DNA of 64,000 nucleotides from Promethearchaeota archaeon (GCA_030603385.1 JAUVXW010000002.1:96001-160000); one strand, 5' to 3'; positions 631-35,622 are shown, counted from the stretch's first letter. The notes: generated from the letters alone by a model not told the origin. Made by a program: numbers and translations.

Positions 631-718
631 CGTCCCAAAACTCAAAAAATACAAAAATTTTTAATTTATTCTAGCTTCAAAAACGTATTATATATTATTT
701 ATTTAATGGTGTGAAAAA

Positions 719-1144
719 ATTTCAATATATGTCGTTCAACCAGAAAAACTAGTTGAAGCTATTGCAGAAAAGTTAAAGGAATTTCCCGAAATTTCACCAC
801 CTAAGGGTTCAGAATTTTGGAAGACAGCGTTTTTTAAAGAATTAGCTCCTAGTGATTCAGAAAATTTCTGGTATATCCGATGCGCCTCTTTGCTTAGAAA
901 ATTGAAGAAATTTGGACCTATTGGAGTTAGTAAACTTCGAAAATTTTATGGAGGAAAAAATAGAAAAGGTAAAGGTTTACATCATTCTGCTAGAGGTAGT
1001 GGAAAAATAATAAGAGTAGCACTTCAACAGCTTGAAAAAGCAAACTTAATTAAAATGAAAGAAAAAAAAGGAAGAGTTCTTTCTTCTGAAGGAACTAGTC
1101 TATTGGAACGAACGGCATATGTGATTATGAGAAGTAAAGATTAA
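719..1144 (+). CDS. rps19e: 30S ribosomal protein S19e (probable ATT start)
   Basis: Frame is open from the stop at 704-706: (I)SIYVVQPEKLVEAIAEKLK..PP..FWKTAFFKELAP..NFWYIRCASLLRK...GSGKIIRVALQQLE. No ATG/GTG/TTG before 890. Confidence 0.93.
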   Translation: MSIYVVQPEKLVEAIAEKLKEFPEISPPKGSEFWKTAFFKELAPSDSENFWYIRCASLLRKLKKFGPIGVSKLRKFYGGKNRKGKGLHHSARGSGKIIRVALQQLEKANLIKMKEKKGRVLSSEGTSLLERTAYVIMRSKD

Positions 1145-1178
1145 TAATACCAAAAGGTGTAATTTTTAGGGGTTTAGA

Positions 1179-1520
1179 TTGAGCAACGACGAGGAATTAG
1201 AAATTATAAGAAGGAGAAAGTTGGAAGAATTAAGACAACAAGCAGCACAACAACAAATTGGAGAAGCTCAACAACAAGAATTTGAAGAAAAAAAATATTT
1301 AATAATGAGAAAAATCTTAAGTGTCGAAGGGAGACAAAGGCTAGAAAATATTCGAATTGTCAAACCACAATTTGCTGAACAAATAGAAATACAATTAATT
1401 CAATTATTTCAAAGCGGGAAGTTAAAAGGAGCAACACCTCTACCAGATAAAGCATTTAAAAAGCTCCTAGAACAGTTAACAACATTCGAAAGGAAGAAAG
1501 AATTTAAAATCAAAAAATAA
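1179..1520 (+). CDS. PDCD5-family dsDNA-binding protein
   Basis: DEELEIIRRRKLEELR...ILSVEGRQRLENIRIVKPQFAEQIEIQLIQL; standard synteny. Confidence 0.92.
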   Translation: MSNDEELEIIRRRKLEELRQQAAQQQIGEAQQQEFEEKKYLIMRKILSVEGRQRLENIRIVKPQFAEQIEIQLIQLFQSGKLKGATPLPDKAFKKLLEQLTTFERKKEFKIKK

Positions 1521-1541
1521 TTATAACAGAAGGAATTTAAA

Positions 1542-1703
1542 ATGGCTCGTAATAAAGATTTACCATCAAAATTGCGTAGAGCGAATAGAATGAAAAAAAA
1601 TAAGTCAGTACCTAATTGGGTAATTCAGAGAACCGCAGGAAAGGTTAGAACTAGCCCATATTCCAGAAGAACATGGAGGAATGCAAAGTTAAAGCGAGAC
1701 TAA
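1542..1703 (+). CDS. rpl39e: 50S ribosomal protein L39e
   Basis: Manual translation MARNKDLPSKLRRANRMKKNKSVPNWVIQRTAGKVRTSPYSRRTWRNAKLKRD (53 aa, below ORF cutoff). Confidence 0.95.
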   Translation: MARNKDLPSKLRRANRMKKNKSVPNWVIQRTAGKVRTSPYSRRTWRNAKLKRD

Positions 1704-1738
1704 ATATATTAATTTAATAAAAATTAATCTGAACGAAA

Positions 1739-2188
1739 ATGGCTAAAAAAGAAAAAGAAATTAATTTAGACGATTTAGAAGAGGAATTAGGAGAATCGGA
1801 AGAAGAAATTGAAGAAAAGATCGAAGAAATTGAAGAATTTAGCTTAGATGAAATTTCTGAAGAAGAAGAAATAAGTGAAATTTTTGAAGAGGAAGTTGGG
1901 GTTATTGAAGAAGCTGAAGAAGAAGCCCCTAAAGAAGAAATTATTGATGAGAGGATTTATATTATACCTCTTGCGAAAGCAAGAAAAGGACCTAGAAACA
2001 AATGGGCTAAGAAATCAATTCGATATTTAAGAGAGTTCATGACCCGCCATTTTAAACCCGAATCATTAATAATTTCTCAAGAAGTAAATGAACGAATATG
2101 GGAACGTGGAATTCAGAAACCACCGAGGAAATTAAAAGTCAGGGTGACAAAGAATATAGATGGACTCTGTGTCGTATATTTAGCATAA
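1739..2188 (+). CDS. rpl31e: 50S ribosomal protein L31e with acidic N-terminal extension
   Basis: ERIYIIPL...IWERGIQKPPRKLKVRV motif. Confidence 0.95.
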   Translation: MAKKEKEINLDDLEEELGESEEEIEEKIEEIEEFSLDEISEEEEISEIFEEEVGVIEEAEEEAPKEEIIDERIYIIPLAKARKGPRNKWAKKSIRYLREFMTRHFKPESLIISQEVNERIWERGIQKPPRKLKVRVTKNIDGLCVVYLA

Positions 2189-2270
2189 TGTTTTATTAAT
2201 TAATTTTAAGGTTTGTATTCTTTTTTTATTATAAATTACTGGAAAAGGTATAGATTTATCAAAGCTTCGA

Positions 2271-2951
2271 ATGGCAATTTTAAGATCTCAAGTTTTTGGA
2301 CGTAGTTTAATTGGAGTGTATCTCGCTGCTAATAACTCATACGTCCTTTATCCTCCTACATTACTAAAACCATTACTTAAGAAGTATAGAAACACCTTCA
2401 TTGAACCTTTTCATCCTCTTACAATCAATAGTTCTGATCTATTAGGTGTGTATACTGCTTCTAATAAATATGGAATAATAGTCCCCCACATTATAAAAGA
2501 TGACGAATTAGAAAAATTAAAAGAATTTTTAAAAGAGGGAACCAACTCTTCTCAAGTAAATGTTCTAAAATCCATAGATAATGCATTTGGAAACTTGATT
2601 CTTTGTAATGATAAAGGAGCTATTATTAGTTCATTTTTAAAAGATCATAAAGAAGATATCGAAAATACTTTGAATGTTGAGACTGTTGTTTATGAATTTG
2701 CTAATAATTATCTTCCTGGCTCAATTTCATTAGTTAATAATAATGGTTGTGTTGTACATCCTCTCTCCACCGACGATGAAATTGATTTTATATCTTCTAT
2801 TTTGAAAGTTGATGAGGTTGATGTTTCAACAGTAAATCGTGGTGTTCCATATTTAAGTTCAGGAGCAATTGTAAATGATAAGAGTGGAATTTTTGGAGTT
2901 GGTTGTACGGGACCAGAATTAATACGAATTACGACTGTTCTACAATTGTAA
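2271..2951 (+). CDS. eif6: Translation initiation factor 6 (aIF6/eIF6)
   Basis: IGVY..ANN, GNLILCNDKGA, STVNRGVPYLSSGAIVND, TGPELIRI. Confidence 0.95.
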   Translation: MAILRSQVFGRSLIGVYLAANNSYVLYPPTLLKPLLKKYRNTFIEPFHPLTINSSDLLGVYTASNKYGIIVPHIIKDDELEKLKEFLKEGTNSSQVNVLKSIDNAFGNLILCNDKGAIISSFLKDHKEDIENTLNVETVVYEFANNYLPGSISLVNNNGCVVHPLSTDDEIDFISSILKVDEVDVSTVNRGVPYLSSGAIVNDKSGIFGVGCTGPELIRITTVLQL

Positions 2952-3043
2952 AGAAATTCTATGTATTTGTAAAAAGCAAAATTTAATAATTTCTTAAATA
3001 TTATCCTTTTTTAAAAGCTTTGATTCAATGGATCTAAATAGCA

Positions 3044-3271
3044 ATGTCAGAGATTAAAATTTATAGAATCATTGGTAATTACAATAAAAATCATAAGAAA
3101 TATTTATTCCGTAAAGAAGTTCGTGCTTTGAAAGAGGAAGATGCTCTTGAAAAAGTATTAAGCCAAATAACATCTATAGGAATTTACAGACGCCAAATTA
3201 ATATTCAAGAAGTTAAAGAAATAACTTTAGATGAAACACAAGACTATCTTATAAGGGAATTATCAGAATAA
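3044..3271 (+). CDS. rpl18a: 50S ribosomal protein L18Ae/LX (eL20)
   Basis: FRKEVRALKEEDALEKV...RRQINIQEVKEI; synteny. Confidence 0.9.
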   Translation: MSEIKIYRIIGNYNKNHKKYLFRKEVRALKEEDALEKVLSQITSIGIYRRQINIQEVKEITLDETQDYLIRELSE

Positions 3272-3299
3272 TTAATATTTTAAATGGATTTGATAGAAT

Positions 3300-3716
3300 T
3301 TGGAATCTTCTCAAGATTATCAGGAGCAATTACAAATATTTAGAATATTGAAGGAACAACGAGATATATTCCAAGGTCAACTTGAAATTCTTAATGTGTC
3401 TCGAGCAAATATAGTGAATACAAAGATTACTATTGAAAATTTAAAAGAAGGCGTAGAAGTAAATGATGAAATTTTAATACCTATTGGAGGAATGGCAAAT
3501 ATTAAAGCCTCTATTAAGGATCCTGAGAAAATTTTACTAGCAGTTACTCAAGATGTTATAATTGAAAAAGATTTAGATGGAGCAATTGAACTTCTTGATA
3601 TGAGAATTGAACAGCATGATAAGGAAATCCAATTCATAAGAACTCAATTGCAAAATATAGAGATTAATTTACAAAAAACTACTCAAACCATTCAGAAAGG
3701 TTATCTTCAAAAATAG
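3300..3716 (+). CDS. pfdA: Prefoldin alpha subunit
   Basis: Coiled coils flanking an EILIPIGG hairpin; synteny. Confidence 0.9.
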   Translation: MESSQDYQEQLQIFRILKEQRDIFQGQLEILNVSRANIVNTKITIENLKEGVEVNDEILIPIGGMANIKASIKDPEKILLAVTQDVIIEKDLDGAIELLDMRIEQHDKEIQFIRTQLQNIEINLQKTTQTIQKGYLQK

Positions 3717-3777
3717 ATCTTATTTGGGCAATATAATTAAATTTCCTTAAACAATGCTAATTTTTGTGGAGAAATAA

Positions 3778-4677
3778 ATGCTTGAAAAGCTAAAAAATGT
3801 GTTTTCTACTTTTGTTAAAAAGAGCTTGACAGAAAAAAAGATAGATGAGGCCATAAATGATTTAAGAATACTCCTTATTAGTAATGATGTTGCAATAGAC
3901 ACTGCTGATGAAATCTGTAAAAGTATTATTGAATCTTTTAAAGGTCAACAAATTACTCGATTAACATCAACTAAAAAAATGCTATTCGATACATTAAAAG
4001 AAGTTATGATTGAAATCTTAACACCTGAAAAGGAAATTGATATAATTAAAGAAATTAAAACTAAAAAGTCGTTAGGTTTACCATATGTATTTGTTTTTTT
4101 TGGAATAAACGGAACAGGAAAAACCACTACAATTGCTAAAGTAGCTAATTTCCTAAAAGAAAGTAACATCAGTTCTGTCGCAGCTGCTTCAGATACATTC
4201 CGAGCTGGAGCTATTGAACAACTAACTAAACATATGAATAATGTTGGAATTAATGTTATAAAGCATGGATATAAATCTGATCCTGCTTCAGTTGCTTATG
4301 ATGCAATTGAGCATGCTAAGGCTAAAGAAATAGATGTAGTTTTAGTAGACACATCTGGAAGGCAGACAACAAACCGAAACTTAATGCTGGAAATGCAGAA
4401 AATCTGTAGAGTTACAAATCCGGATCTTAAAATTTTCATAGGAGACAGCCTTGCGGGAAATGATGTTTTATACCAAGCTAGAGAATTTGACAGACACGTT
4501 GGAATTGACGCTAATATCTTAACTAAACTTGATGCAGATGCGAAAGGTGGCGCTGCATTATCAATTTCGTTTGAAACTAAAAAGCCGATTCTATTCATTG
4601 GAACAGGGATAGGTTATGATGATTTAGAGCCGTTTGATCGAGATATATTTCTTTCAAATATTCTTGACATCAATTAA
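3778..4677 (+). CDS. ftsY: SRP receptor GTPase FtsY
   Basis: GINGTGKTTTIAK, DTFRAGAIEQL, DTSGR, TKLDADAKGG. Confidence 0.97.
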   Translation: MLEKLKNVFSTFVKKSLTEKKIDEAINDLRILLISNDVAIDTADEICKSIIESFKGQQITRLTSTKKMLFDTLKEVMIEILTPEKEIDIIKEIKTKKSLGLPYVFVFFGINGTGKTTTIAKVANFLKESNISSVAAASDTFRAGAIEQLTKHMNNVGINVIKHGYKSDPASVAYDAIEHAKAKEIDVVLVDTSGRQTTNRNLMLEMQKICRVTNPDLKIFIGDSLAGNDVLYQAREFDRHVGIDANILTKLDADAKGGAALSISFETKKPILFIGTGIGYDDLEPFDRDIFLSNILDIN

Positions 4678-4738
4678 GATATGAATTAATATTGTTTTAG
4701 GTAGATAAATTAAAATAGCTTTCTTAATTTAATTAGAT

Positions 4739-4984
4739 GTGTCAAGCTACCCAAAATATGAGAAGTATTCAAAACTAGATCGGAAAAAGAAACCTGGCCT
4801 TTATGAAAGATTTATAACTTTCCTTCGAAATGCCAAAAGAATTCTAAAAATAGCGAATAAACCTAATCGGAAGGATTATTTTCTGGTTTTTAAAATTTGT
4901 GGAATAGGTCTCTTACTTTTAGGTGCTCTATCATTTGTTATACAATTAATCCTCACTGTAACTTTACCTATCGCTAAGGTTTAA
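4739..4984 (+). CDS. secE: Protein translocase SecE/Sec61-gamma
   Basis: RILKIANKPNRKDY followed by one TM helix. Confidence 0.92.
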   Translation: MSSYPKYEKYSKLDRKKKPGLYERFITFLRNAKRILKIANKPNRKDYFLVFKICGIGLLLLGALSFVIQLILTVTLPIAKV

Positions 4985-5004
4985 AATCTAACATAAAATA
5001 GATA

Positions 5005-6189: not shown

Positions 6190-6756
6190 ATCCTATTTTT
6201 TTTTTATTTATTTTATATTTTCAATAAATCAATATTTTAGGGTGAACTTATAAAATAGAAGTAGAATTTAGCACTTTTAATTAGAAACATTACAAAATTA
6301 ATTGTTTCCAACTAAAAGCTTGAATATTTAGTCTGTTGATAAAATATTATGATTTTTATTAAACTTGGATTATTACACTACTTCTTATATCTTATTATAA
6401 GTCTGAACAACAATTTTGATTTACTGAACTGATTATAATTTTTATTATTTGGTTGTTTGATTTATTCCATTAGTTATTTAATTTAGTTAATGATAATCTT
6501 TGATAAGTTTATACATTGATTCCTTATTTCTATTGTGAGAGTTAAATAATAACGTGGATAATTTTGATTTATATAATATTTTTTATTTTTTATTTGTAAA
6601 TTTGAACTTAAAATCATCTTGATTTTGATGATTATAATGTATTTAATTAATTAACCAATATATTTTTTGCTAATTTTTAGAATTTTTGATTAGTTTTTTA
6701 TGTCATATTTGTTTTTGCAATATAAATTTTAACTATATAAATTATTTAATTAGGTT

Positions 6757-7770
6757 ATGGAGAAAATTATAGTTCTTGGGGGGAAAGGAGGAGTAGGAAA
6801 GAGTACAATAAGCGCCGCCACTGCTGTAGTCTTATCAGATCATCTTCCTGAAAAAAAAATACTTCTTATATCCTTTGATATGGCACATAACCTTACCGAT
6901 TTATTTAATTCTGAGATTGGAAATAAACTAACACCTATAACTGATAATCTTTGGGCAATTGAACCAGATCCTAATGAATATGCCAAGAAATACACAAATA
7001 ATTTAATAACTAAGATGAAAGCTTTAATGAAAGAAATGCCAATAGTGGGGTTAATTCCACAATTAGAGAAATTTATGGATACAACATTTACAGCAGATTC
7101 TATCCCACTTGCACTGAAAAATGCTATGTTTTTTCAAGAAATTTTAGATGCTGAGGGTGGACAATCTATGCAATTTGATATAATAATCGCAGATTTCCCC
7201 CCCACGGCAAATATGATTACTCTTTTTGAGATTCCCGAAGACCAAGTAAAAGTACTACTAAAGTATTCATTAAATTTTTATAATTCTATTAAAGAGGCAG
7301 TTAGAAAATTTTCTAAAATGTTTAGAACATTAATTAAGCCATTTGATAACTATGAGAAAAGAAAAGAATTAGGGAAAGAGATTTTTCAAATGTTGGTAGA
7401 TCTTGAAGAGAGAGGAGAAAGAATAACTGAATTAATTCATACGGTAGGGTCATTAAGACTTGTTTCTATTGCAGAAAAACCAAGTTTTGAAGAAATTAAA
7501 AGAGCTAGAGACTTAACTAAGAAATATATTAAACTTGAAGGAGTTCATATTAATATGATAACACCTCAATCTAAAAAATGTGATTTTTGTAATAACATTC
7601 GATCAATTCAACTTAACTACGTTGAAAAAATAAGAAATGAATTTAGTAATTTAAAGATATGGGAGTCAAATCGGCTTGAAAAAGAACCTTTTGGTTTGAA
7701 TGGACTTAAATCCTTAGCATACGAAGTCTATGGAAAATCTATAAAGGCAGAAGATATTTTAAATCCCTAA
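6757..7770 (+). CDS. ArsA/Get3-family ATPase
   Basis: GGKGGVGKST P-loop, DMAHNL, C-terminal CDFC, EPFGLNGL. Confidence 0.88.
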   Translation: MEKIIVLGGKGGVGKSTISAATAVVLSDHLPEKKILLISFDMAHNLTDLFNSEIGNKLTPITDNLWAIEPDPNEYAKKYTNNLITKMKALMKEMPIVGLIPQLEKFMDTTFTADSIPLALKNAMFFQEILDAEGGQSMQFDIIIADFPPTANMITLFEIPEDQVKVLLKYSLNFYNSIKEAVRKFSKMFRTLIKPFDNYEKRKELGKEIFQMLVDLEERGERITELIHTVGSLRLVSIAEKPSFEEIKRARDLTKKYIKLEGVHINMITPQSKKCDFCNNIRSIQLNYVEKIRNEFSNLKIWESNRLEKEPFGLNGLKSLAYEVYGKSIKAEDILNP

Positions 7771-7929
7771 GGTTAATAAGTACAGAAAATTTTATTAGAA
7801 ACATGAGACTTAGGATAGAATTACTGAGGTTTAATGGGTTAATTGCACCTCACAATTCTAATAGAGCTGCATGTTTTAGACACCTCAAAATGTCTATTCA
7901 CCTAATTAAAAGAACAAGGAACGATAAAA

Positions 7930-9702
7930 ATGCCTCTTTCTTCACATAAGTTCCCGCATATTGAACATAAAGTGGATTTTTGCGTTGTTGGTGGAGGTAT
8001 GGCAGGACTTGTTGCATCTATAGCTGCTGCACGGCATGGAACTAAAGTTCTTCTTATGCATGACCGTCCCGTGCTTGGTGGTAACGCTTCAAGTGAATGT
8101 CGTATTCACATCTGCGGGGCCGACCGTCATAACCGGATTCCTAACATGCGTGAGACTGGTATTCTTGAGGAGATCCGCCTCGAGAATCTGCACTGCAACC
8201 CAAATCGCAATTATTCAGTATGGGATATGGTGCTCTATGATTTAGCCGAGAGGACATCAAACTTGACAGTATTGCTGAACTGCTCATGTATGGACGCCAC
8301 ATTGGATGATAATTATATCAAGTCTATATCGGGTTGGCAAACTACATCACAGACTCGCCACACAGTGTGGGCACAGATTTTTGCTGACTGCTCAGGAGAC
8401 TCAGTACTTGCCCCTCTCACGGGAGCAGAATATCGTATGGGGCGCGAGGGACGTGATGAAACAGGTGAGACGATCGCTCCAGAAAAAGCAGACGCAGGAA
8501 CAATGGGGATGACATGCCTCTTTCAAGCTCGTGATTTCGGTACACCACAGACCTTTAAATCCCCTAAATGGGCTAATATTTATACACGGGACGAAGACCT
8601 TCCCTACGGAACCAGAGGTCACAACCATGGGGAGTGGTGGGGACTGGGATATTGGTGGGTAGAATTAGGAGGAGTTTGTCACTCCATCCATGACACGGAG
8701 CGGATGCGTCGTGATCTTTTGAAGATTGCCCTTGGGGTATGGGATCACATCAAAAACCAAGGTGATCATGGCGCGGAAAATTGGGGACTTGAATGGCTAC
8801 AATTTCTCCCAGGTAAGCGGGAAAGTCGGCGATACATCGGTGATTATGTCCTTACGCAACAAGATATCGAGGAGGGTGGTAAGTTCGATGATATAGTGGC
8901 TTATGGGGGGTGGTCGATGGATGATCATCACCCAGCGGGTTTCGAAGCAGTGAGGTTTGGTTCTCCCCCTACGATTTACCACCCGGCGCCGTCACCCTAT
9001 GGCATTCCCTATCGCTCACTCTACTCACGCAATGTGGGTAACCTGATGTTCGCGGGACGGAATGTAAGCGTGACGCATGCAGCTCTTAGTTCAACACGTG
9101 TTATGGGTACCTGCATCAGTATGGGCCAGGCTATGGGTACGGCGGTAGCAATGGCTGTGCGTCACTCGTTGACACCACGCGAAGTGAGTGAACGTGTAAA
9201 CGAACTCCAGCAACTGCTTTTGCTTGACGATTGCTACTTACCGTGGATTCCGCAGAAGTTCTCGTCCCTAACCATAAATGCAAGACTAAAGGCATCGAAT
9301 GGTGTTGATCCTGAGCCAGTGCGGGATGGGTGGAATAGACAAATTGGTGATGATCCTCACGCATGGACAGCTCGATCAGGTGACTCGATTACTTATCTGT
9401 TTGAAACACCGTCCCATGTATCAGAGGTGAAGCTTCTTCTCGACACAGCAATGGATAGAGATCTGGCGCTCAGTTTACACTACAGGGATCATGGGATGAC
9501 ACATATTCCCGAAGAAACACCTCGTAGGTTTCGCATCGACGTGATGAAAGACGGGGAATGGCACAAGTTTAGAGTAGTGGAAGGGAACTACCAGCGACAG
9601 GTGTGTGTTGGCATAGGTGAGGTGGTAGAGGGTGTACGCTATACACTTACTGAGACCCATGGTGCAGAAACATCTCGAGTATACGGATTTTATGTTCGGT
9701 AG
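7930..9702 (+). CDS. FAD-dependent oxidoreductase with C-terminal beta domain; anomalously GC-rich
   Basis: VVGGGMAG, DRPVLGGNASSE, GKRESRR, YGIPYRSL, SSTRVMGT. Confidence 0.9.
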   Translation: MPLSSHKFPHIEHKVDFCVVGGGMAGLVASIAAARHGTKVLLMHDRPVLGGNASSECRIHICGADRHNRIPNMRETGILEEIRLENLHCNPNRNYSVWDMVLYDLAERTSNLTVLLNCSCMDATLDDNYIKSISGWQTTSQTRHTVWAQIFADCSGDSVLAPLTGAEYRMGREGRDETGETIAPEKADAGTMGMTCLFQARDFGTPQTFKSPKWANIYTRDEDLPYGTRGHNHGEWWGLGYWWVELGGVCHSIHDTERMRRDLLKIALGVWDHIKNQGDHGAENWGLEWLQFLPGKRESRRYIGDYVLTQQDIEEGGKFDDIVAYGGWSMDDHHPAGFEAVRFGSPPTIYHPAPSPYGIPYRSLYSRNVGNLMFAGRNVSVTHAALSSTRVMGTCISMGQAMGTAVAMAVRHSLTPREVSERVNELQQLLLLDDCYLPWIPQKFSSLTINARLKASNGVDPEPVRDGWNRQIGDDPHAWTARSGDSITYLFETPSHVSEVKLLLDTAMDRDLALSLHYRDHGMTHIPEETPRRFRIDVMKDGEWHKFRVVEGNYQRQVCVGIGEVVEGVRYTLTETHGAETSRVYGFYVR

Positions 9703-9776
9703 GAAGTATTAATGTATAGGAAATTAAAAAAATAAAAAACAAAAATTAGAAAAACACTTTACTCAATTTTTTTAAA

Positions 9777-11045
9777 TTATGTGCCCGCTTCATATCCGTG
9801 TATATAATTATATTGCTCTTCCGTTAAAGTATCCATCTCAACGCCCATTGATTCTAATTTGAGAAATCCAACCTTGTCGTCAATGTCAATTGGAACGTCA
9901 ACCATACCTGGCTTTAACTTAGTCTTGTTTTTAATTATATACTCAGACATTAGAGATTGTAAACCAAAGGACATATCCATTACTTCACTAGGGTGCCCCT
10001 CTGATAAGACTAAATTTGCTAGACGCCCTTTTGCTAATAAATAAACCTTTTTGCCATCGGGAAACATAAGTTCTTCCACATTACTTCTAATGGGTTTAAT
10101 TTCTTGGGCGTATTCGTAAAGTTCTTTTGTTGGAATTTCGATATCGAAATGCCCTAAATTACCCAAAATAACCCCATCTTTAAGTAAGTTAAACATTTCT
10201 GTAGTAGGTGCTATAACATGTTTACAACCTGTAGCGGTCAAAATAATGTCTGCGGTTGGAAGTGCTTTAGCAATTGGCATGACATTAAATCCAGCAAATT
10301 TAGCTTGTAGCGCCTTAATTGGATCAACTTCAGTTACAGTAACATTGGCACCCAATCCTCGTGCTCTAAGTGCCATACCACTACTACAATGACCATATCC
10401 TGCAATAACAACACTCTTGCCAGCAAAAAGAACGTGCATTCCATAAATTGCGGAGACAATACCCTGACCTGTGCCTAATTCATTATCAAAATGATTTTTA
10501 CATCGAGCATCATTGACAGGGAATAGAGGTACTTTTAAAACTCCTTTTTTCTCCATAGCTTTGAATCTTTTAACACCTGTGGTGGTTTCTTCTTGACATG
10601 CGATAATGGTTCCCAATTTTATTAGATCTTCATATTCCTGATGAGCAGTAACAATCATGTCAGCACCATCATCAATTAAGATATTTGGTTTGGCATTTAA
10701 GCACTGTCTTATACACCAATAGAATTCTTCATCTGTATTACCATGCCAAGCGAAGACATTGATCCCTTCTTGTACTAATGCTGCTGCTACATCATCTTGA
10801 GTTGATAATGGATTACTACCACAGAGATATACTTCTGCTCCACCAGCCTTAAGGGTTCTAGCAAGGATACCCGTTTCTTTTGTTATATGTAAACAACCAG
10901 CGATTATTATGCCATCTAATGGTTTTTCTTTTTGAAATCTTTCACGAATAACTTTAGCGGTCACCGGCATTTTACTTTCTGCGAGGTATAAGGCTTCTTT
11001 TCCTTTCTCTGCTAAACTTTCATCTGCTACTTTATAATTTGTCAT
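9777..11045 (-). CDS. ahcY: Adenosylhomocysteinase
   Basis: GCLHITKET, SNPLSTQDDVAAAL, EETTTG, GHPSEVMDMSF. Confidence 0.97.
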   Translation of the reverse strand: MTNYKVADESLAEKGKEALYLAESKMPVTAKVIRERFQKEKPLDGIIIAGCLHITKETGILARTLKAGGAEVYLCGSNPLSTQDDVAAALVQEGINVFAWHGNTDEEFYWCIRQCLNAKPNILIDDGADMIVTAHQEYEDLIKLGTIIACQEETTTGVKRFKAMEKKGVLKVPLFPVNDARCKNHFDNELGTGQGIVSAIYGMHVLFAGKSVVIAGYGHCSSGMALRARGLGANVTVTEVDPIKALQAKFAGFNVMPIAKALPTADIILTATGCKHVIAPTTEMFNLLKDGVILGNLGHFDIEIPTKELYEYAQEIKPIRSNVEELMFPDGKKVYLLAKGRLANLVLSEGHPSEVMDMSFGLQSLMSEYIIKNKTKLKPGMVDVPIDIDDKVGFLKLESMGVEMDTLTEEQYNYIHGYEAGT

Positions 11046-15937: not shown

Positions 15938-15993
15938 TTCTCAAAAAAGTCTTTTGAAACAAACGAATAATTTTAGAAAAGAAGGTGTAATCT

Positions 15994-16962
15994 ATTTCAA
16001 GTTGGAGAGAATTAAAACAAGAATCCGATGAAGTTTTGAGTATACAGACTAATCTGTGTACAGAATGCGGGAACACTATATTTTTTGATGAAAATAGAGG
16101 TTTATTAGTTTGTGAAGAATGCGGTTTAGTACATTCTGAGAAACATATTGATAGAGGTCCGGAATGGAGGGCTTTTAATGCAGATCAAAAAAAGAAGAGA
16201 ACTAGAACTGGTGCACCTATGACATATATGATACATGATAAGGGTCTTAGTACTATGATAGACTGGAGAAATAGAGATATTTTTGGTAAGGAAATACCTG
16301 CTAAATTGAGAGGTCAAATATATAGACTTCGAAAGTGGCAAAGTCGTATCAGAGTTTCTGATGCTACTGAGAGAAACCTTACATTTGCACTAAGTGAACT
16401 TGATAGAATGGCTTCAAACTTAGAGCTTCAAAAAAATTTAAGAGAATGTGCTGCAAAAATTTACCGTGATGCTGTTGAGGCTCATCTTATTCGCGGTAGA
16501 AGCATTGAGGGGGTGGCCGCTGCTAGTTTATATGCTGCATGTAGAATGTTTAAAGTACCACGTACATTAAACGAGATTGCTGAAGTAGCTCGTGTAGATA
16601 AAAAGGAGATCAGCAGATCTTTTCGATTTATTTCGAATGAACTAGAATTAAACTTAAACCCAACTAAACCAATCGATTTTCTTACTAGATTCATTTCAGA
16701 GTTAAAACTAACATCTAACTGCCAAAAAATGGCAAAAGCGATTATTAGAATGGCAGAAAGACGAGGATTAACTTCAGGAAGAGGTCCTACAGGAGTATGT
16801 GCAGCTGCAATTTATGCTTCAAGTATTTTATCAAATGAACGTAGAACTCAGAGAAGTATTGCTCGAGTTAGTTGTGTGACCGAAGTTACAGTCCGAAATC
16901 GTTTTAGTGAACTTGTAGAGAATCTAAATCTTGGCATATCTTTAAAGAGGAATAATAAATAA
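15994..16962 (+). CDS. tfb: Transcription initiation factor IIB (probable ATT start 15994; ORF track uses TTG 16036)
   Basis: CxxC..CxxC ribbon, GPEWRAF, cyclin repeats, [14 protein letters not shown] lies 6 nt before the in-frame ATT. Confidence 0.96.
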
Positions 16963-18172: not shown

Positions 18173-18205
18173 CCCAATAATCTAATAAACTTATGGTGAG
18201 TCGTC

Positions 18206-18700
18206 ATTCACTTAGTAATAACTTACTTTAACCAAATATTAGGACCAAGTGTTTTGTTATCTTATCCTGATGAATTGTTAGAGGAAAATCTCATAAATAA
18301 ATTAAAAAAGTTTTTTGATTTAGAAATTGATGAGACCTTCTTCGAAATAATCCTTATTACTAAGAAAAAGAAAATTATCAATTTTCATTTCGAAATTCCG
18401 TCTAAGTGGGCACGTGGGGAAAAGGAGGATGCCATGCTCTCCCTAATAATAAAGAAAGAATATGAAAGTTCTCAATTTTATGCATTTCTAGTAGATTCAT
18501 CGTATAAAATCTTAAAAACTGAAAATGTGTACAAAGCTTTTTATAAAGATGATGAATTTCACGATAATGATATTGAAATTGATATGACGTATGAAATAAT
18601 AAGAAAAATTCTTTTTAACTGTGTATCAAGTCTTATATTACGGATAGAAGATAAAATTAAAGGAGTAGATAAAAAAGAACCGTTTCCTTTCTCTTCGTAA
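18206..18700 (+). CDS. Longin/uDENN-like protein (probable ATT start)
   Basis: The in-frame extension gives (I)HLVITYFNQILGPSVLLSYP, the typical YFx3-4GP N-terminus; also FEIPSKWARG..E..MLS. GGTGAG SD at 18195. Confidence 0.6.
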   Translation: MHLVITYFNQILGPSVLLSYPDELLEENLINKLKKFFDLEIDETFFEIILITKKKKIINFHFEIPSKWARGEKEDAMLSLIIKKEYESSQFYAFLVDSSYKILKTENVYKAFYKDDEFHDNDIEIDMTYEIIRKILFNCVSSLILRIEDKIKGVDKKEPFPFSS

Positions 18701-18701
18701 T

Positions 18702-19063: not shown

Positions 19064-19819
19064 TTATTTTTCTTTTTTAATTAGTGAGAGAATGTCATTG
19101 TATGAACCCAGTAATTCCCTAACATTTGAATTATTTAATCCCTCAAGAGGAGTACCTTCAAAAGCAATCCTACCATCGTTTAAAACCAATATTTTCTCTG
19201 CCCAATTTTCAACAAAAAATAGATTATGTGTAGTGAAGAAAATTGTAATGTTATTCTCTTTTCTTAACTTCTCAATAATTTTTAAATGATTATATATCGA
19301 TTTAAAATCAAGGTTAGCAAAAGGTTCGTCTAATATTAGCAAATTAGGTTTCATTACTAAAACTCCTGCTAATGCTGCTCTCTTTTTTTGACCCCATGAA
19401 AGGTTAAATGGTGAATAATTTCTAAAATCTTCTAAATCAACTGCTTTCAAAGCCCAGCTAACTCTTTCCTTTACTTCGTCATCACCTAATTTTAAGTTTC
19501 TTGCTCCAAAGCTGATATCTTCTTCAATAGTTGGCGCAAAAAGTTGATCATCTGGGTTTTGAAATAAAAAACCAACCGATTGTCTAATTTCCCATAGATC
19601 TCGTTTATTTCTTGTAACATTTTTCTCAAAAATCCTAATTGAACCAGATTTTGGTTTCAATAATCCTACTAATAATCTTAATAAAGTTGTCTTACCTGAT
19701 CCATTATTTCCTGTTAATGCATAAATTGAGTTGTCTTCAATTTTAAAAGAGAGATCGTTAATTTTAAACCGATTATCATAGCTAAAATTTAGATTTTCAA
19801 CTTCTACGGCAAAAATAAT
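19064..19819 (-). CDS. ECF transporter ATPase (NikO/CbiO type), probable ATT start
   Basis: Walker A GNNGSGKTT lies upstream of the first TTG (19660); also FQNPDDQLF, LSWGQKKR, LDEP. Confidence 0.92.
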   Translation of the reverse strand: MIFAVEVENLNFSYDNRFKINDLSFKIEDNSIYALTGNNGSGKTTLLRLLVGLLKPKSGSIRIFEKNVTRNKRDLWEIRQSVGFLFQNPDDQLFAPTIEEDISFGARNLKLGDDEVKERVSWALKAVDLEDFRNYSPFNLSWGQKKRAALAGVLVMKPNLLILDEPFANLDFKSIYNHLKIIEKLRKENNITIFFTTHNLFFVENWAEKILVLNDGRIAFEGTPLEGLNNSNVRELLGSYNDILSLIKKEK

Positions 19820-20607
19820 GTAATTACACCTTGATATATTGATTGCAAATTTAATATAAAAATCATAAAAACCATGATTACACTGAAAAGAGTAAAAAAA
19901 CTTAAATCAATTAATGTAAATTTTTTAGGAGCAAATGTTATTTTACCTGTAAAACCTCGCATTTTCAAACTTTCGTATAGTTTTTCACTTTTCTCCATAT
20001 TTATTACAATACTCTTTCCCATAATAAAAGCGTGTGATTTTAATTTCTGATAATATGATGCGATATTTTTACCACGCATTTCTTGTGCTTCTAGTATCTT
20101 TCTATTTGAGTTTGCTAAGATTGGAATATAATGCAACATAATTATTAAGGATCCTACAAAAATGGATGGGATTCTTAACTTTGTTAAAGCTTCTATGAAT
20201 TCAGAATAAGTTAAAGTTGAGAAAAAGGACATAAATACAAATAATGCCCCAAGAACTCTTAAAATTGTTAGAGAAGCTAAAATTAATCCTTCCTTAAAAA
20301 TTGTTATCGTAATTCCCATATTGAATTGATAAAGAACAATATCTCCAACGTATAAAGGAATGAATATCGTTAGTAGAAATATAAAGGGAATGACTATTCT
20401 TAATCTTGAGAGTATTTCTATTATGTTTAATCTAAATATTAAATCAATAATAAAAATAATTAATAGAATAGAAACTATCAGATAAATATCATCTATAATG
20501 ATAAAAGGTATTACAAAAATAAACGGTAAAATTAAACGAGTTAAAGGGTGACTTTTTTTTAAATAAATTTTCTCATCTTCAAGTCTAAAAGGTAAGTTTA
20601 TCTTCAA
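19804..20607 (-). CDS. ECF transporter T component (NikQ/CbiQ type)
   Basis: Hydrophobic; AQEMRG and SLKMRGF motifs. Confidence 0.9.
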   Translation of the reverse strand: MKINLPFRLEDEKIYLKKSHPLTRLILPFIFVIPFIIIDDIYLIVSILLIIFIIDLIFRLNIIEILSRLRIVIPFIFLLTIFIPLYVGDIVLYQFNMGITITIFKEGLILASLTILRVLGALFVFMSFFSTLTYSEFIEALTKLRIPSIFVGSLIIMLHYIPILANSNRKILEAQEMRGKNIASYYQKLKSHAFIMGKSIVINMEKSEKLYESLKMRGFTGKITFAPKKFTLIDLSFFTLFSVIMVFMIFILNLQSIYQGVITLFLP

Positions 20608-23321: not shown

Positions 23322-23484
23322 AATCCAAATCATACTAAGATATAGTCAAATCTATAAAATTTTTTACCTCCTATTCATTTTCGAAATTTACTATGCTTAA
23401 GGATAAATTTTTTAAGTTTTATCTAATTCAATTTCATTAGAGATATTAAAAATAATAAGATAAAATTAAAACTAGCTGATTTAT

Positions 23485-23757
23485 ATTCCGAAAAAAAGAA
23501 AAAGTGGCGGAAAAACAGGAAGCCGGAAGGGCCAGGATCATAAAGTTCAATGCTATAAATGTGGTCGATTTGTTGCTCGTAGTAAAGCTAAAGCTGTTAC
23601 AAGAAGAACATCTTTAGTTGATGGTAGAATGTATGCTGAATTAAAAAAAGCAGGTACAATAATAATGGGTTCTTCTTCGACTAAATACTACTGTATTAGC
23701 TGCGCAATTCACAGCCATCAAATAAGCCAACGAGATAAAAGTTTAAGAAAACAATAA
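23485..23757 (+). CDS. rps26e: Ribosomal protein S26e (ATT start; absent from ORF track)
   Basis: (I)PKKRKSGGKTGSRKGQDHKVQCYKCGRFVARSKAK...KYYCISCAIHSHQISQRDKSLRKQ*. Confidence 0.95.
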   Translation: MPKKRKSGGKTGSRKGQDHKVQCYKCGRFVARSKAKAVTRRTSLVDGRMYAELKKAGTIIMGSSSTKYYCISCAIHSHQISQRDKSLRKQ

Positions 23758-23809
23758 CAGTTATAAAGTTAACTTTATTTTTTATTGCTTTTTTTGACAG
23801 AAAAACTTT

Positions 23810-26465: not shown

Positions 26466-26467
26466 GA

Positions 26468-28390: not shown

Positions 28391-28540
28391 ATTTAATCAT
28401 TTATTTATTCAATCTCAATATATATTCGAAACTATATAACCCTAAAAAAATAAAGTTAATTATTAATAAAATAAAAATATGAAAATAAAAATATTGGTTA
28501 ATGATAGAATTGTACTAAAATAGGTCCATTTTGTTATAAT

Positions 28541-29569: not shown

Positions 29570-29942
29570 TAATTGGTCAATATAATAAGAGAAGATAAAT
29601 ATTTAAATTTTGGAGGTGTAATTTGAAATGTGATAATCGTCCATTTAATTCTCTTCTAACATTTTTAAAATATTAAAATAATTTCAATATATTTTTTTAG
29701 TGTGTTAGGGTAAAGTTGAATTTTAATACTATAAAGCCCTTATCCAAATGGATATTTAAGAATAATTTTAAATAGAAATTAATTAAATCTTTGATTTAGC
29801 AAGAAATTGAACATTGATTTCAAAAAACGTGAATTTGCCTTTTATCCTACACTAAAATTTAAAAATAAATTACATTTATATCATAATAAAATGCATTCTT
29901 AATCAAATATAATTAATAGAAAAGATCATTTAAAAAACGAGT

Positions 29943-30479
29943 TTGAAAAAAATGGGATTTGGAAAATCATTCTTATTAAGTTTAGTAGCTTTTATTGGAT
30001 TAAATTTTATAGTTTCAATATTGTATTTTGCATTAGATGTGGGATTTGATACTTTAATGGATAATATTCAAAATGCTCCTTTAATGATAATTTATTATCT
30101 TTTCGGTTCAGTTACGAGTGTGCCATCTAATAACATGGATTGGGCAATAGTTCAACCTCTTTTTAATGAAGACAATACCTTTTTGATACTCAGTTTGGGT
30201 TATCTAGTTGCACCGATAATCGCAGCTATTCTTGCTGGAAAATTTGCTGAAAGTAAATTTCAAGGTTTTGCGGGATGGCTATTAACTGTTATTGTTAGTA
30301 CAGTCGCAGTGGTTATCGGAGTGTTTTTAAGTCCAACTTTAGAATTAGAATTTGGTAAATTATTTTATAACTGGACTGGTTTTGAATTAATTCTAATATA
30401 TATTATAATTAGCTGTGTTGTAAATATTGTTTTTTACAGCTTCTTCGCATTACTAGTATCAAAAACAGAATACTATTGA
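29943..30479 (+). CDS. Hypothetical membrane protein (~4 TM)
   Basis: Hydrophobic segments. Confidence 0.75.
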   Translation: MKKMGFGKSFLLSLVAFIGLNFIVSILYFALDVGFDTLMDNIQNAPLMIIYYLFGSVTSVPSNNMDWAIVQPLFNEDNTFLILSLGYLVAPIIAAILAGKFAESKFQGFAGWLLTVIVSTVAVVIGVFLSPTLELEFGKLFYNWTGFELILIYIIISCVVNIVFYSFFALLVSKTEYY

Positions 30480-30576
30480 TTTCAATCATCAAAATTCAAT
30501 TTCTTTTTTTTTTTCTTGAAAATAGAATATAATCCTAATTATTTTGCCTATTGAATTAAAAAGAGAATTTAATTTA

Positions 30577-32012
30577 TTATTTCTTATAAGAGGATTTTAG
30601 GAATTGAGAATAATCACATAATAGAGTCATACTTTGAGCAGCATCTCTTAGAGATAAGTAATATAAAGCTCGTTTTTTATGTAAAAATTTTTTGATTGTA
30701 TCAAATCTTTTAGCAAGATTTCCATTATCTGCCAAAGTGGGTAAACAAATGGCAAAAGGTTTTGAAGTTCGGTCTCGAATGTTAATCAATCGTTTAAAAA
30801 CATGGCGATATACATGTTCAGACCAAAGTGGAATAATAACAATATCAATATTAGGATCTTTAATTACAACTTCTATACATTCAGTAAAAATATTTAAAAT
30901 GAAACCTGAAGCGCCAAGATCAATTGGATTTTTAATATTTACATTCACATCTGGTAGAATATTTGCAATTTTAGATTGTGATTCTAATGTCAATTCAGGA
31001 ACGTGTAGATTTAGATTAGCAAATAAATCAGTTAGATTCACAGAAGCTCCACCACCAGGAGTTACTATTCCAATATTTCGTCCTTTAGGAAGATGATCTG
31101 GAGATAATAATTCAAAAGTTTTTATGGCATGCCAAAATTCTTCATTATCTTTTACAATAACAGTGCCTGTTTGCTTAGCCATTGATCTCCATAAGCGATT
31201 ATCTGAAAAAATTGCACCTGTATGCGAAAAGGCGGCTCTTAATCCGTCTTTTGTATATCCTCCCTTCCACAGAATTACGGGTTTAATTTTTGTAGTTCTT
31301 TTAAGTTCCAAGAATAACTGTTTACCTGTAGCCGATCCAAATGATTCTAAATATGCTGCTATTAATTTTGTTTTTGGATCCTGCCGATAAAATCTAAAAA
31401 AGTCAACACAGTTTAAGTCAATTTGATTACCAAAACTCACACCAAAATGAAATCTGATATCACGTTTAAACCCAACATCCACTAACTGAGTTAAATGACC
31501 TCCCGATTGAGACATAAATGATACTCCACCATAATTCCCTCTTTGAGAAGCAAAAGAAAAAGCCATCCCTGATTCTGCATTTATGGGTCCTAAGCAATTA
31601 GGTCCAATTATTCTTGTATTTGAACTTTTGATTATATCTAATATTTCGTTCTCTAGCTCTTTTCCCTGAGAATCACTGTTTCTGAAAACCCGGATGCGAA
31701 TATAATTACCCATTTAATACCCTTCTTTACACATTCTTTCAAAATTTTCGGAATAAATTTTGTCTTTAAAGAGATGTATGCTGTATCAATAGGATATGGC
31801 ACATCTAAAACTGATGGATAACATCTCCAATCTAAAATTTTTTCATGATTCGGATTGATTGGATAAAAATTGTTTGCCCATTTAGATTCTTTGAAGACAT
31901 TTAAATACAGCATTGAGCCTAAGGTTGAGTTCTCTGATGCCCCAATAAAAGCAATATTTTTAGGGTAAAATAATGAGGTTAGATCCTCAAAATGTTTTTG
32001 ATCCATGGCCAT
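30577..32012 (-). pseudogene. Acyl-CoA synthetase (ADP-forming) alpha subunit, split by an apparent 1-bp deletion near 31676
   Basis: IAFIGAS...ASGFSET continues in another frame as (G)DSQGKELENE..RIIGPNCLG, SQSGG, SHTGA, NPIDL. Confidence 0.85.
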
Positions 32013-32182
32013 TAACTACAAGAAATTAAGAAATTTTTTTATAATTTTCTAGTACGAAAAATTAAGAGATAATTAGGTGTTGATTCATAATAGTTCTGAA
32101 AAAACCAAATTTTTAATTTAATTTACAATTAGACTACACATACTTATTCAATGAAAAAAATAATCTATTTGGAGAAAATAAA

Positions 32183-33637
32183 ATGGCAAGACCAAGTCCA
32201 CTAGAAGTCTATGCACTTTTAGATAAAAGCAATTGTAAAGAGTGTGGATACGATACATGCATGGCTTTTGCGACAGATATCCTGGAAAGGAAGGTTATAG
32301 TTCAAGATTGCATACATCTAGTGCAAGATCCTAAGCAGGCAAAGAATCGAGAGAAATTGATAAAACTAATAACACCTCCTCAAAGGCCAATAACTGTTGG
32401 CACTGGTGATAGAGTTGCTATAATCGGGGGTGAGGAAGTATTTTACCGTCATCAATTAACTTTTTATAACCAGACATCAATTTTTATTGAAATCGCAGAT
32501 GATGATGGTGATTTAGAGGAAATTGTTAGATATCTTACAGATCTAAAGATAGAACGGATTGGTGATGTACTTACTCTAGATGGCATTGCATTAAGAAACG
32601 TATCTGGAGATAAGGAGCAATTCAAATTAGCTGCGAGTAAAATAGCAGAACTCTCAAATCTTCCAATTATGTTATGTACTTTTGATGTCGACATTTTGCT
32701 ATATGCTGCGGAAGCAATTAAAAACAAAAAACCTTTATTATATGCCGTAACAAAAGATTCTTGGGAACAAATCGGTAAATTTGCTGTGCAAAATAGTTTG
32801 CCTGTAGCTGTTTTTTCAAACGAATTAGATGAATTAATGTCTCTAAGTGCAACACTACAGAAACTGGGAGTTAAAGAAATGATATTAGATTCAGGGACGT
32901 TTTTTGGTCCTGGTAATCTCTCAGCAACATATGATAAGATTATGCAGTTAAGAACTGCTGCCATCAATAAAGGGGATGTCAATGCGGGATGGCCAGTAAT
33001 GGGTGTTCCTGCAGTTTATTGGAATCTAGTTAAAATTGGGGATGATAAAGAACTTTGGGAACAACAATTTCAAGAAATAATCATGGGGGCAATTATGGAA
33101 TCTATAGATACGAATTTAATAGTTTTACACACAGGGCAGAAAAAAGAAGAAATTTGGGCGCTTCTAGCTCTAATGACATTGCGTCAGAGTGTATTTTCCG
33201 ATCCTAGAATTTATCCTGCGGTTGATGCTGGTATTTATAAAATTGGAGAACCAGATGAAATGGCACCAATTTTTGTTACAAGTAATTATAGAATGACAAA
33301 AATTCCTGTTGAGCAAGATTTATTGGGCGCAAATTTGAATTGCTGGCTTTTGGTGGTCGACACAGAAGGTATTGGGATTGAAAGTGCAGTAGCAGGAGGG
33401 CAATTTAATGCTGGAGGCATAGCAGAAGCAGTTAAAGAATTCAAGGCTTTTGAAAATGTAAAACATCGAGTTCTTATTCTTCCTGGAATGGCTGCTCGAT
33501 TAAGTGGAGCACTAGAAGATGAAGCAGATGCTTTTGTAGTTGTTGGGCCTCGTGATAGTTCAGGAATTCCTAAATATATGGACACTCTATGGAAGCCTAA
33601 GGAATTCATGAAAGAATATGAATCCTGGGAGAAATAA
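32183..33637 (+). CDS. cdhE: Acetyl-CoA decarbonylase/synthase gamma subunit (corrinoid Fe-S protein large subunit)
   Basis: NCKECGYDTCMAFA, IGGEEV, LRQSVFSDP, LPGMAARLSG, VGPRDSSGI. Confidence 0.93.
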   Translation: MARPSPLEVYALLDKSNCKECGYDTCMAFATDILERKVIVQDCIHLVQDPKQAKNREKLIKLITPPQRPITVGTGDRVAIIGGEEVFYRHQLTFYNQTSIFIEIADDDGDLEEIVRYLTDLKIERIGDVLTLDGIALRNVSGDKEQFKLAASKIAELSNLPIMLCTFDVDILLYAAEAIKNKKPLLYAVTKDSWEQIGKFAVQNSLPVAVFSNELDELMSLSATLQKLGVKEMILDSGTFFGPGNLSATYDKIMQLRTAAINKGDVNAGWPVMGVPAVYWNLVKIGDDKELWEQQFQEIIMGAIMESIDTNLIVLHTGQKKEEIWALLALMTLRQSVFSDPRIYPAVDAGIYKIGEPDEMAPIFVTSNYRMTKIPVEQDLLGANLNCWLLVVDTEGIGIESAVAGGQFNAGGIAEAVKEFKAFENVKHRVLILPGMAARLSGALEDEADAFVVVGPRDSSGIPKYMDTLWKPKEFMKEYESWEK

Positions 33638-33776
33638 AGATTTTTATTCTTTTTTTATCTTTTTTTATTATATTTATTCGAACTTGCATTTTATAAAAGT
33701 GAATAAATCATATCAATTGTAATACTTTTAACCTTTTTTACAATTAGAGTCTGGATCTCATTTTCTCTAGCTTGTT

Positions 33777-35429
33777 TCAATTTATTTTAAATCCTTTAAA
33801 CAATTTTAAAAGAAACATAATTTCTTCAGATCTCTCAATTATTCTTCTTAATGGAAAGGGGAAATTGTTTAACTCGACTTGGTTTCCTTTAGATACTTGT
33901 TCGATCATTATTTTTATTATTTCCTTGTATTTATTAACAGTTGGGCCTTCATATTCAATCTCAGATATAACTTTCCAAGCTTTATCTAATTTACCATTTA
34001 AAATGCATGATATTGAAGCCAAAACATAGCTAAGAACAATGTGAGAATACCCAACTTTCTTTAAATTGGCTGCTCGATAATAATAACGATAAACATTATT
34101 AACCATTTCTCGTAAAAGAAAGTCTTTGGCAGTATCAAGCTGTTCATAAAATTTTATACTCTCCAAAATAAGTGTTGCGGCCGTATAAAACTGTTTGTTT
34201 TTCAGACCTTCTTTGGCAATTTTATTCAATCCCCTTATTATTTGACTAAATATCCCAAACCTATTATATTCTAAACGCCCTTCTATAGCAATATCATACG
34301 CATTCAAATAACTCTCCGTAGACTCATTTATACGCCCTATCTTCCAATAGTTATCTCCAGCCTTTACAAAATGTTTATAAGCCATTTCTAAATTATTCAA
34401 TTCCTTAAATACATTTGCACCATCGAAAAAATTCATCGCTGCTTGACTAAAATCTTCTAGTTTTTCTGAAAAGTTTCCAGCTAATAAAAAACATGAAGCA
34501 CACTCAATTAAATTATTTTTTATCTCTTGATAACATAATCCAGCACCACGATAATATCTAGCGATTTTATGATAGTTTTCTGTTATCTTTTCAAGTTTTT
34601 CTGCCAAATCTATATAAGCTCCAGCTTCTCTTTTAGAGTAATTTATATATTGATCGTCTTCAGCTAAAATTTTATAAAGATTTTTCAATATCTGATATAT
34701 TTGAGCTAATGTTAAGCTCTCATTCTTCTCTTCTAAGGTAGTTACTAAGTTTAAGAAAAACTCTACTCCCTCCAAAATTGATTCCTGGGATTTGCCATAA
34801 TCATCTAATTCTTCATAGCACGTACCGATTTGTTGATAAGAGAAAGATAATATATCATAAAAATGATGAGACTTTGAAATTTTGATAACTTTTTCGTAAT
34901 ACTTAATAGCGTTTTTAAAATCAGAAGATTTCGAATACAATTCAGCTATATTTTGGTAGTTTTGAGCATGTTTCCTTGTCTCATCAAATTCTTTTAAAAG
35001 AGTACTTTCTTGTTTTAGGAACTTAATACTATTTAAGATATTTTTTTTTTCTGAAAGTGTATCTTGAAATTTCTCGAAAAAAATCTCAGCAATCCTTAAA
35101 TACAACTCAGCAACTTCATGTAATTTTGCCTGCAATTTATAGTCAATAATCTGTTTTTTATATAATTCTATGATTTGGTTATATAAATCAAGTGATTCTG
35201 AAAAATCAAGATCTTCAATTATCACTGCTACAGAATATAAAAATTCTCCTGCATCAAAAAATTCCCCTGATTGGGCAATATTTTTAGAAAAATTAATTGA
35301 TGCCGAGATTACTTCTTTTATTGATTTATTCCGTTCTACTGGATCATCGATCCTTTTAATTTTAGACTCAGAAGCTCTGATTTTCTCTAAAAACTCTGCA
35401 TAATCAATGAATTCTTCTTCTTCGATAAT
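33777..35429 (-). CDS. SNAP-like/TPR solenoid protein (probable ATT start 35429)
   Basis: Repeated A..Y..AG/AA..F helix pairs; frame stays open 68 codons upstream of the GTG, to an ATT after GAGGAG. Confidence 0.7.
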   Translation of the reverse strand: MIEEEEFIDYAEFLEKIRASESKIKRIDDPVERNKSIKEVISASINFSKNIAQSGEFFDAGEFLYSVAVIIEDLDFSESLDLYNQIIELYKKQIIDYKLQAKLHEVAELYLRIAEIFFEKFQDTLSEKKNILNSIKFLKQESTLLKEFDETRKHAQNYQNIAELYSKSSDFKNAIKYYEKVIKISKSHHFYDILSFSYQQIGTCYEELDDYGKSQESILEGVEFFLNLVTTLEEKNESLTLAQIYQILKNLYKILAEDDQYINYSKREAGAYIDLAEKLEKITENYHKIARYYRGAGLCYQEIKNNLIECASCFLLAGNFSEKLEDFSQAAMNFFDGANVFKELNNLEMAYKHFVKAGDNYWKIGRINESTESYLNAYDIAIEGRLEYNRFGIFSQIIRGLNKIAKEGLKNKQFYTAATLILESIKFYEQLDTAKDFLLREMVNNVYRYYYRAANLKKVGYSHIVLSYVLASISCILNGKLDKAWKVISEIEYEGPTVNKYKEIIKIMIEQVSKGNQVELNNFPFPLRRIIERSEEIMFLLKLFKGFKIN

Positions 35430-35622
35430 CTTATGATCTCCTCAGAAAAAAATAACAACTATGTAGAGAAATTAAATTGAAAATAAAAAATTTAGTGATT
35501 TTGTGTCCTAAATTGAAAATGCATCTTCATAAATTATGTAGTTAAGATTATAGGAGACATATTTTACTAAGGAAATAATGTTAAATATGATCGAGATTAT
35601 AATATAAATAATTAAAAAAAAG

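Follow-up and report, generated by a model that had tools for sequence, protein, structure and literature searches.

Predicted AUU, AUC and AUA start codons, shared across a lineage of Loki-type archaea and found in essential genes

Translation in prokaryotes rarely starts at AUU. Bacterial examples include two Escherichia coli genes, pcnB and infC, the latter encoding the initiation factor IF3, and NCBI genetic code table 11 lists ATT, ATC and ATA among its starts. Proofreading of the start codon is a role of aIF1. Expression of infC is autoregulated through its own AUU start and that of eIF1 through the poor start context of its own AUG, and aIF1 of Sulfolobus solfataricus discriminates against AUU in vitro (PMC4705826). 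Reviews of archaeal initiation, which treat Sulfolobus, Pyrococcus, Haloferax and Prometheoarchaeum, give AUG, GUG and UUG as the only start codons (PMC7531240; PMC7261190). Ribosome profiling in Haloferax found near-cognate codons at ~30% of putative alternative start sites, which its authors set aside against false positives, and our literature search found no paper on AUU or ATT starts in Asgard archaea or Lokiarchaeota. Here, we analyze a 64,000-nucleotide stretch of DNA (hereafter the window) from a Loki-type Asgard archaeon, in which six genes, among them those for a TFIIB-type factor (tfb) and ribosomal proteins S19e and S26e, appear to start at ATT.

Genes of this archaeon are very probably translated from the near-cognate codons AUU, AUC and AUA (AUH; ATH in DNA), a habit that would be common to its genus and to related Lokiarchaeia. 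As in bacterial infC and pcnB, the AUU lies behind a Shine-Dalgarno (SD) sequence, is conserved in orthologues and would be read by the initiator tRNA. Unlike bacteria, in which AUU serves a handful of genes, this lineage appears to use ATT, ATC or ATA in several percent of its genes, including those for TFB and ribosomal proteins, and the host has the eukaryote-type factors aIF1, aIF1A and aIF2, not IF3. AUU starts are known for a few bacterial genes; what is new here, and well supported by comparison of sequences, is an archaeal lineage with several percent of predicted AUH starts. Unlike the near-cognate sites of Haloferax, the ATH starts described here are backed by genus-wide conservation.

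The window covers positions 96001-160000 of contig C34 in a metagenome-assembled genome (MAG; G000) of 3.89 Mb and 31% G+C, which is 94% complete with 7% estimated contamination. Cold-seep and marine-sediment metagenomes of 11 studies carry near-identical DNA. We read the codon aligned to each ATT in orthologues from 24-26 species-level congeners, two of them single-contig genomes, and from other families of the order (25-40 related genomes), taking ATG, GTG and TTG as canonical starts. The original prediction had reported six ATT sites, and all of them are present in the sequence as described; two of the genes, for the ECF-type ATPase and the TPR protein, are encoded on the minus strand, a point absent from that account. 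The genes are as follows:

704..1144, plus strand: rps19e, with TAA in frame at 704-706, GGTG at 708-711, the ATT start at 719 and a stop at 1142-1144.
15983..16962, plus strand: tfb (TFIIB-type), with AGGTG at 15983-15987, an in-frame TAA at 15988-15990 and the ATT start at 15994.
18195..18700, plus strand: a longin-like gene, with GGTGA at 18195-18199 (its TGA in frame) and the ATT start at 18206.
19064..19831, minus strand: an ECF/ABC-type ATPase, with AGGTG at 19831-19827, ATT at 19819 and ATT at 19816 (the conserved one).
23473..23757, plus strand: rps26e, with TAG at 23473-23475, the weak SD GCTGAT at 23475-23480 and the ATT start at 23485.
33777..35444, minus strand: a TPR/SNAP-like gene, with TGA in frame at 35444-35442, GAGGAG at 35443-35438 and the ATT start at 35429.

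Pfam supports five of the six identities (S19e, S26e, ABC_tran, TFIIB with its Zn ribbon, and TPR/SNAP); a Pfam search of the longin-like gene returned no match. In five genes, AGGTG, GGTGA or GAGGAG(AT) stands 6-8 nucleotides (nt) before the ATT, and rps26e carries the weak GCTGAT. We did not find a 16S rRNA in this MAG and used that of a congener instead, whose 3' end is GGATCACCTCC. These leader motifs are complementary to this 3' end and are therefore genuine SD sequences. In five of the genes an in-frame stop precedes the ATT by 0-4 codons; in this genome's ATPase the distance is ~30 codons. Between the upstream stop and the sequence that the family requires (the Walker A motif of the ATPase, the domain of S19e and, for S26e, the profile from position 1 on) there is no canonical start.

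Comparison across the genus revealed that the start codon is kept or replaced by another start. In tfb it is ATT in 23 and ATC in 3 of the 26 genus genomes and canonical in none, with AGGTG always 6-7 nt upstream and stops often 0-3 codons upstream. The TPR gene has ATT in 25/25 genus genomes, behind tGAGGAGAT, and its first canonical codon in the window is GTG 35225, 68 codons after the ATT. In rps26e, ATT 23485 falls at the family's Met position and reads I-PKKRK; the codon is ATT in this genome and in 22/22 informative congeners. In the most divergent congener (G012) it is ATA, with GAGGT upstream, and in the order's other families it is ATG or GTG, preceded by GGTGA. For the ATPase, AGGTG, the ATT at 19819 and a Walker A motif (GNNGSGKT) encoded upstream of the first TTG (19660) are all as predicted, but the ATT conserved in the genus is 19816 rather than 19819. 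One or other of these adjacent codons is ATT in 18 of 19 orthologues (the 19816-aligned one in 14), neither is canonical in any, and two orthologues have an in-frame stop one codon before the conserved ATT.

The longin-like gene has the most mixed record of starts, with ATT, ATC, ATA, TTG, GTG and ATG all occurring at the start codon across 24 orthologues (L091-L114). Every non-ATG start has tGGTGA 6-8 nt upstream, and the SD is absent from most ATG versions. Start type co-varies with leader type in this gene, which suggests that an SD is needed by weak start codons but not by ATG. The ATG versions mostly have an A/T-rich, TATA-like box ~30 nt upstream and look leaderless. SD-led and leaderless-looking genes are likewise mixed in other archaea. 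Alignment of orthologues had been proposed as a check on whether ATT is conserved or interchanges with ATG or TTG, and across the six genes the codon is indeed either conserved in the genus or swapped with ATG, TTG or GTG. Because ATT is kept in ~25 species-level genomes and an SD peak precedes ATH codons genome-wide, the pattern goes beyond chance, and the reading of these ATT starts as a probable lineage habit, rather than six accidents, is supported.

To place the six genes in context, a genome-wide count of SD-preceded ATT had been suggested, and it yielded the expected signal. At trusted ATG starts the SD peaks at an aligned spacing of 7, and ~16% of these starts have an SD of at least five matched bases (a ≥5-mer) at spacing 5-10. 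Our ATH set comprised in-frame codons that precede the first canonical start by 5 codons or more, and it too peaked at spacing 7, with 12.0 (ATT), 9.2 (ATA) and 14.9 (ATC) per 1000 against 2.1 for other codons. ATH codons thus stand at SD spacing 7 at 4-7 times the rate of other codons, and the excess exceeds 10-fold with 6-mers. Strong-SD ATH starts in excess number ~50, compared with 382 canonical first starts with the same SD. When any 4-mer SD was allowed, ATH codons in open reading frames (ORFs) did not rise above other codons, and the G-content profile upstream of all early ATT codons showed a faint SD signal. SD-like words are common within genes, so only the spacing-resolved SD analysis is informative.

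Two further counts addressed coding sequence upstream of canonical starts. By hexamer coding score, coding-like sequence immediately precedes the first canonical start in ~220-280 of 3291 likely genes. For a count by homology, we paired stop-to-stop ORFs of this genome with 1.2 Mb of the single-contig congener G023 and filtered antisense shadow ORFs by first- versus second-position divergence; third-position divergence was dropped as an antisense filter because one antisense register mimics the coding pattern. In 42 of the 570 orthologue pairs that remained (7.4%), the alignment extends upstream of the first canonical start by 10 codons or more, and 27 of those 42 have an ATH at -3 to +2 codons relative to the point where the alignment begins. 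In an earlier set, filtered by overlap, the alignment opened on ATH in 18 of the 48 pairs of this kind, against a 10% background (p = 4e-7). Twelve orthologue pairs have ATH in one genome and ATG, TTG or GTG in the other. We estimate the AUH-start share at ~5% of genes, with a range of 2-10%. The expectation that a sizeable share of genes is affected is borne out at several percent, both by the 42/570 pairs and by the window itself, where 6 of ~57 genes are affected.

Other near-cognate codons also came to light among the pairs. In pair a907, ACG aligns with the congener's ATG, and in pair a2478, CTG stands at the start of a conserved protein behind GGTGA/GGGTG in both genomes; pair a2019 is also among the genes that seem to use other near-cognate codons.

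An obvious question is whether translation instead begins at the first downstream ATG, GTG or TTG, the conserved upstream stretch being an untranslated leader. Such codons lie close by in places, 16 codons downstream of the ATT in the longin-like gene and 6-14 codons downstream in tfb of some genomes, and public gene callers pick starts of this kind. The upstream stretches, however, evolve as coding sequence, with mismatches by codon position of 0.15/0.16/0.43 and 71% amino-acid identity, and the ATG of relatives sits exactly at the ATT position. Downstream starts would moreover remove the Walker A of the ATPase and 57 residues of the 137-position S19e domain; in 9/26 genomes the first canonical codon of tfb is 37-75 codons downstream, within or beyond the Zn ribbon (residues 22-61), which would likewise be lost. 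We consider downstream initiation highly improbable, and AUH initiation remains the preferred reading.

Gene callers restricted to canonical codons were predicted to truncate such proteins, and the TPR gene bears this out. Its public models are mostly 477-537 residues long against the 550 predicted here, or ~13-73 residues short, and the short ones include those of both single-contig congeners and this window's own model; a few public models are full length or longer. Callers limited to ATG, GTG and TTG would truncate or misplace several percent of the proteins here, TFB, ribosomal proteins and ATPases losing their P-loop among them. Asgard proteomes are heavily used to make inferences about the origin of eukaryotes, and domain calls, signal peptides and structure predictions are all affected when N-termini are wrong.

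The rps19e site has a different history from the other five. Its first in-frame canonical codon is TTG 890, 57 codons past the ATT, and positions 2-136 of the S19e Pfam profile are matched from residue 3. Within the genus the ATT is unique to this genome: 24/24 congeners have ATG (MSIYVV) behind an SD-less leader. Relative to these, ~25 nt of the leader are replaced in this genome, bringing in both GGTG and ATT, and SD plus ATT also occurs at rps19e in two genomes of another family.

A site confined to one genome of the genus, in a MAG with 7% estimated contamination, invites the objection that the ATT codons stem from errors in sequencing or assembly, or that the genes are pseudogenes. At rps19e, a metagenome contig from the X1 study has four listed differences from the window, at 591, 841, 902 and 957, and is identical over 700-725. 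Contigs from X2 and X6 also span the site, with one X2 and three X6 differences falling outside the matches listed. An assembly error at the rps19e ATT is unlikely because the leader sequence recurs in two or three independent metagenome contigs from separate studies. ATT codons at the other sites recur in ~25 species-level genomes that were assembled independently, two of them as single contigs, and the reading frames are unbroken and diverge in the manner of coding sequence. The chance that errors or pseudogenes account for the ATT codons is close to negligible.

How ribosomes would reach the ATT is a separate matter, and at some genes the route may differ from SD-guided selection. Several orthologue pairs have mini-ORFs that start from an ATG or GTG overlapping the SD and end at or just before the ATH, as in dapL (GTG ATG GTG TTT TAA ATT). 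In rps19e, an out-of-frame mini-ORF, ATG GTG TGA, occupies 706-714 and ends 5 nt before ATT 719. These mini-ORFs could reflect termination-reinitiation or merely the AT-rich context around GGTG. For rps19e, judging by the TATA-to-start distance of relatives, transcription would begin ~2 nt before the ATT; assembled RNA contigs (run X15) cover the gene only from 744 on, and contigs cannot show a transcript start.

These observations raise the alternative that some ATH starts are reached by reinitiation after a mini-ORF of 2-5 codons overlapping the SD or, in rps19e, by leaderless initiation at AUU. The mini-ORFs that end directly at an ATH and the predicted rps19e transcription start speak for it. 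Against it, the mini-ORF is absent from tfb, the TPR gene, the ATPase and most longin-like orthologues, and ATGGTG may be no more than GGTG preceded by AT in an AT-rich genome. We regard such routes as unlikely and favor SD-guided selection of the AUH codon. Under SD-guided selection, the duplex between the leader and the 16S 3' end (GGAUCACCUCC) would place AUU, AUC or AUA, 6-8 nt downstream, in the P site in most of these genes. The ordinary initiator Met-tRNA (anticodon CAU) would then be accepted despite the third-position mismatch, and the protein would start with Met.

The proofreading factor itself appears to be among the affected genes. We did not find an aIF1 gene in this genome's assembly; in 22/23 congeners it reads aaAGGTTGTGATAA GAG AGT ATT AAA GAC GAC ... 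ATT TGT CCx. Two or three in-frame stops lie upstream in the congener gene, and no canonical codon occurs before the CPxC zinc knuckle (ICPxC). Across the class, aIF1 starts are ATT or ATC in three genera of this family, ATA in two other families and TTG in two families. The aIF1 leader, aaAGGTTGTGATAAGAGAGT-ATT-AAAGACGACGA (L173-L197, L288-L311), is near-invariant across the genus, far above other leaders, which hints at a regulatory RNA element or a protein-binding site. With aIF1 in the congeners and tfb, rps19e and rps26e in the window, the claim that essential genes are affected holds.

Because aIF1 rejects AUU in Sulfolobus in vitro and its own gene here is predicted to start at AUU, we propose that the gene forms an infC-like negative feedback loop, which would govern the efficiency of every AUH start. 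As with infC, the gene for a proofreading factor (IF3 there, aIF1 in this genus) itself appears to start at AUU, permitting autoregulation (PMC4705826); the infC feedback is established, and that of aIF1 is proposed here by analogy. It is possible, if doubtful, that the level of aIF1, through its own AUU or AUA start, sets cell-wide stringency and jointly tunes an AUH regulon (~5% of genes, including those for TFB, ribosomal proteins and L7Ae) in Lokiarchaeia. More generally, we infer that start-codon fidelity is relaxed in this lineage and that start choice could act as a regulatory layer, as had been suggested.

There is also a parallel with eukaryotes. aIF1 is the orthologue of eIF1, and in both cases the mRNA of the fidelity factor carries a weak initiation signal of its own. 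As with CUG, ACG and AUU in eukaryotes, near-cognate codons here would be used at a level set by an eIF1-type factor. Unlike eukaryotes, which use cap scanning and keep AUG on eIF1, this lineage would combine SD positioning with a non-AUG codon. Eukaryotic near-cognate starts mostly serve upstream ORFs and extensions, whereas here essential genes would have no other start. Such reliance on AUU, AUC and AUA would make this lineage a natural system in which to study stringency control by an eIF1-type factor. If the proposed loop is true, aIF1 would join IF3 and eIF1 as the third independent fidelity factor to govern a weak start of its own.

We also considered that a dedicated tRNA reads AUH. 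This could be an initiator-like tRNA whose anticodon is GAU, AAU or UAU, or else an elongator Ile-tRNA, giving proteins with an N-terminal Ile or with Met from a special tRNA. The tRNA inventory offers nothing positive for this and is itself incomplete: aragorn found 13-18 tRNAs in this MAG, those for Met and Ile being absent, and an Rfam tRNA search of a closed congener gave at least 20 matches among the 150 of 278 candidates scored. A scan for the initiator arm GGGCT-NNN-AACCC over 26 genus genomes recovered the normal CAT arm in 4 genomes and, within this incomplete inventory, no sign of a dedicated AUU-reading initiator tRNA. The one AAT-anticodon match that we inspected is part of a protein-coding frame rather than a tRNA. 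ATT, ATC and ATA share start positions and interchange with ATG, TTG and GTG, which fits one tRNA tolerating a single mismatch. A dedicated tRNA is accordingly very unlikely in our judgment, and we retain the ordinary initiator Met-tRNA as the probable reader of AUH codons.

Several points weigh against translation from SD-anchored AUH starts as a lineage habit. ATH-beginning pairs are not enriched for strong SD sequences, a ≥5-mer occurring in 4% of them against 15% of ATG/ATG pairs; SD anchoring therefore explains a subset only, or the class is diluted by chance Ile codons and false positives. The GGTG of rps19e may lie outside the mRNA, upstream of the transcription start, in which case the start would be a leaderless AUU, itself unusual. 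Three codons upstream of the rps26e ATT, a CTG (TTG in one genome) is a possible, weaker alternative start. Both aIF1 and the initiator tRNA are absent from this MAG, so that these two parts of the mechanism rest on congeners. Finally, the AUH starts are predictions from the comparison of sequences, which the existence of cultured Lokiarchaeia makes directly testable.

The predicted SD-anchored habit thus stands, by conservation and by the SD peak, for the six genes and for a genome-wide subset, but does not extend to the many other ATH candidates that lack a strong SD. Many ATH starts may use a weak SD or none.

Beyond the start codons, the window contains a segment of 39% G+C (7930-11045) in a 29% G+C background, encoding an FAD-dependent oxidoreductase and an S-adenosylhomocysteine hydrolase. 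Positions 6501-9728 are missing from one contig of another metagenome, and part of the 7930-11045 region may be variable or acquired. Among the tRNAs that aragorn predicted on the contigs of this MAG are a tRNA-Pyl (CTA) and a tRNA-SeC (TCA), and the anticodon arm of the latter, GGGCTTCAAACCC, recurs in nearly all congeners.

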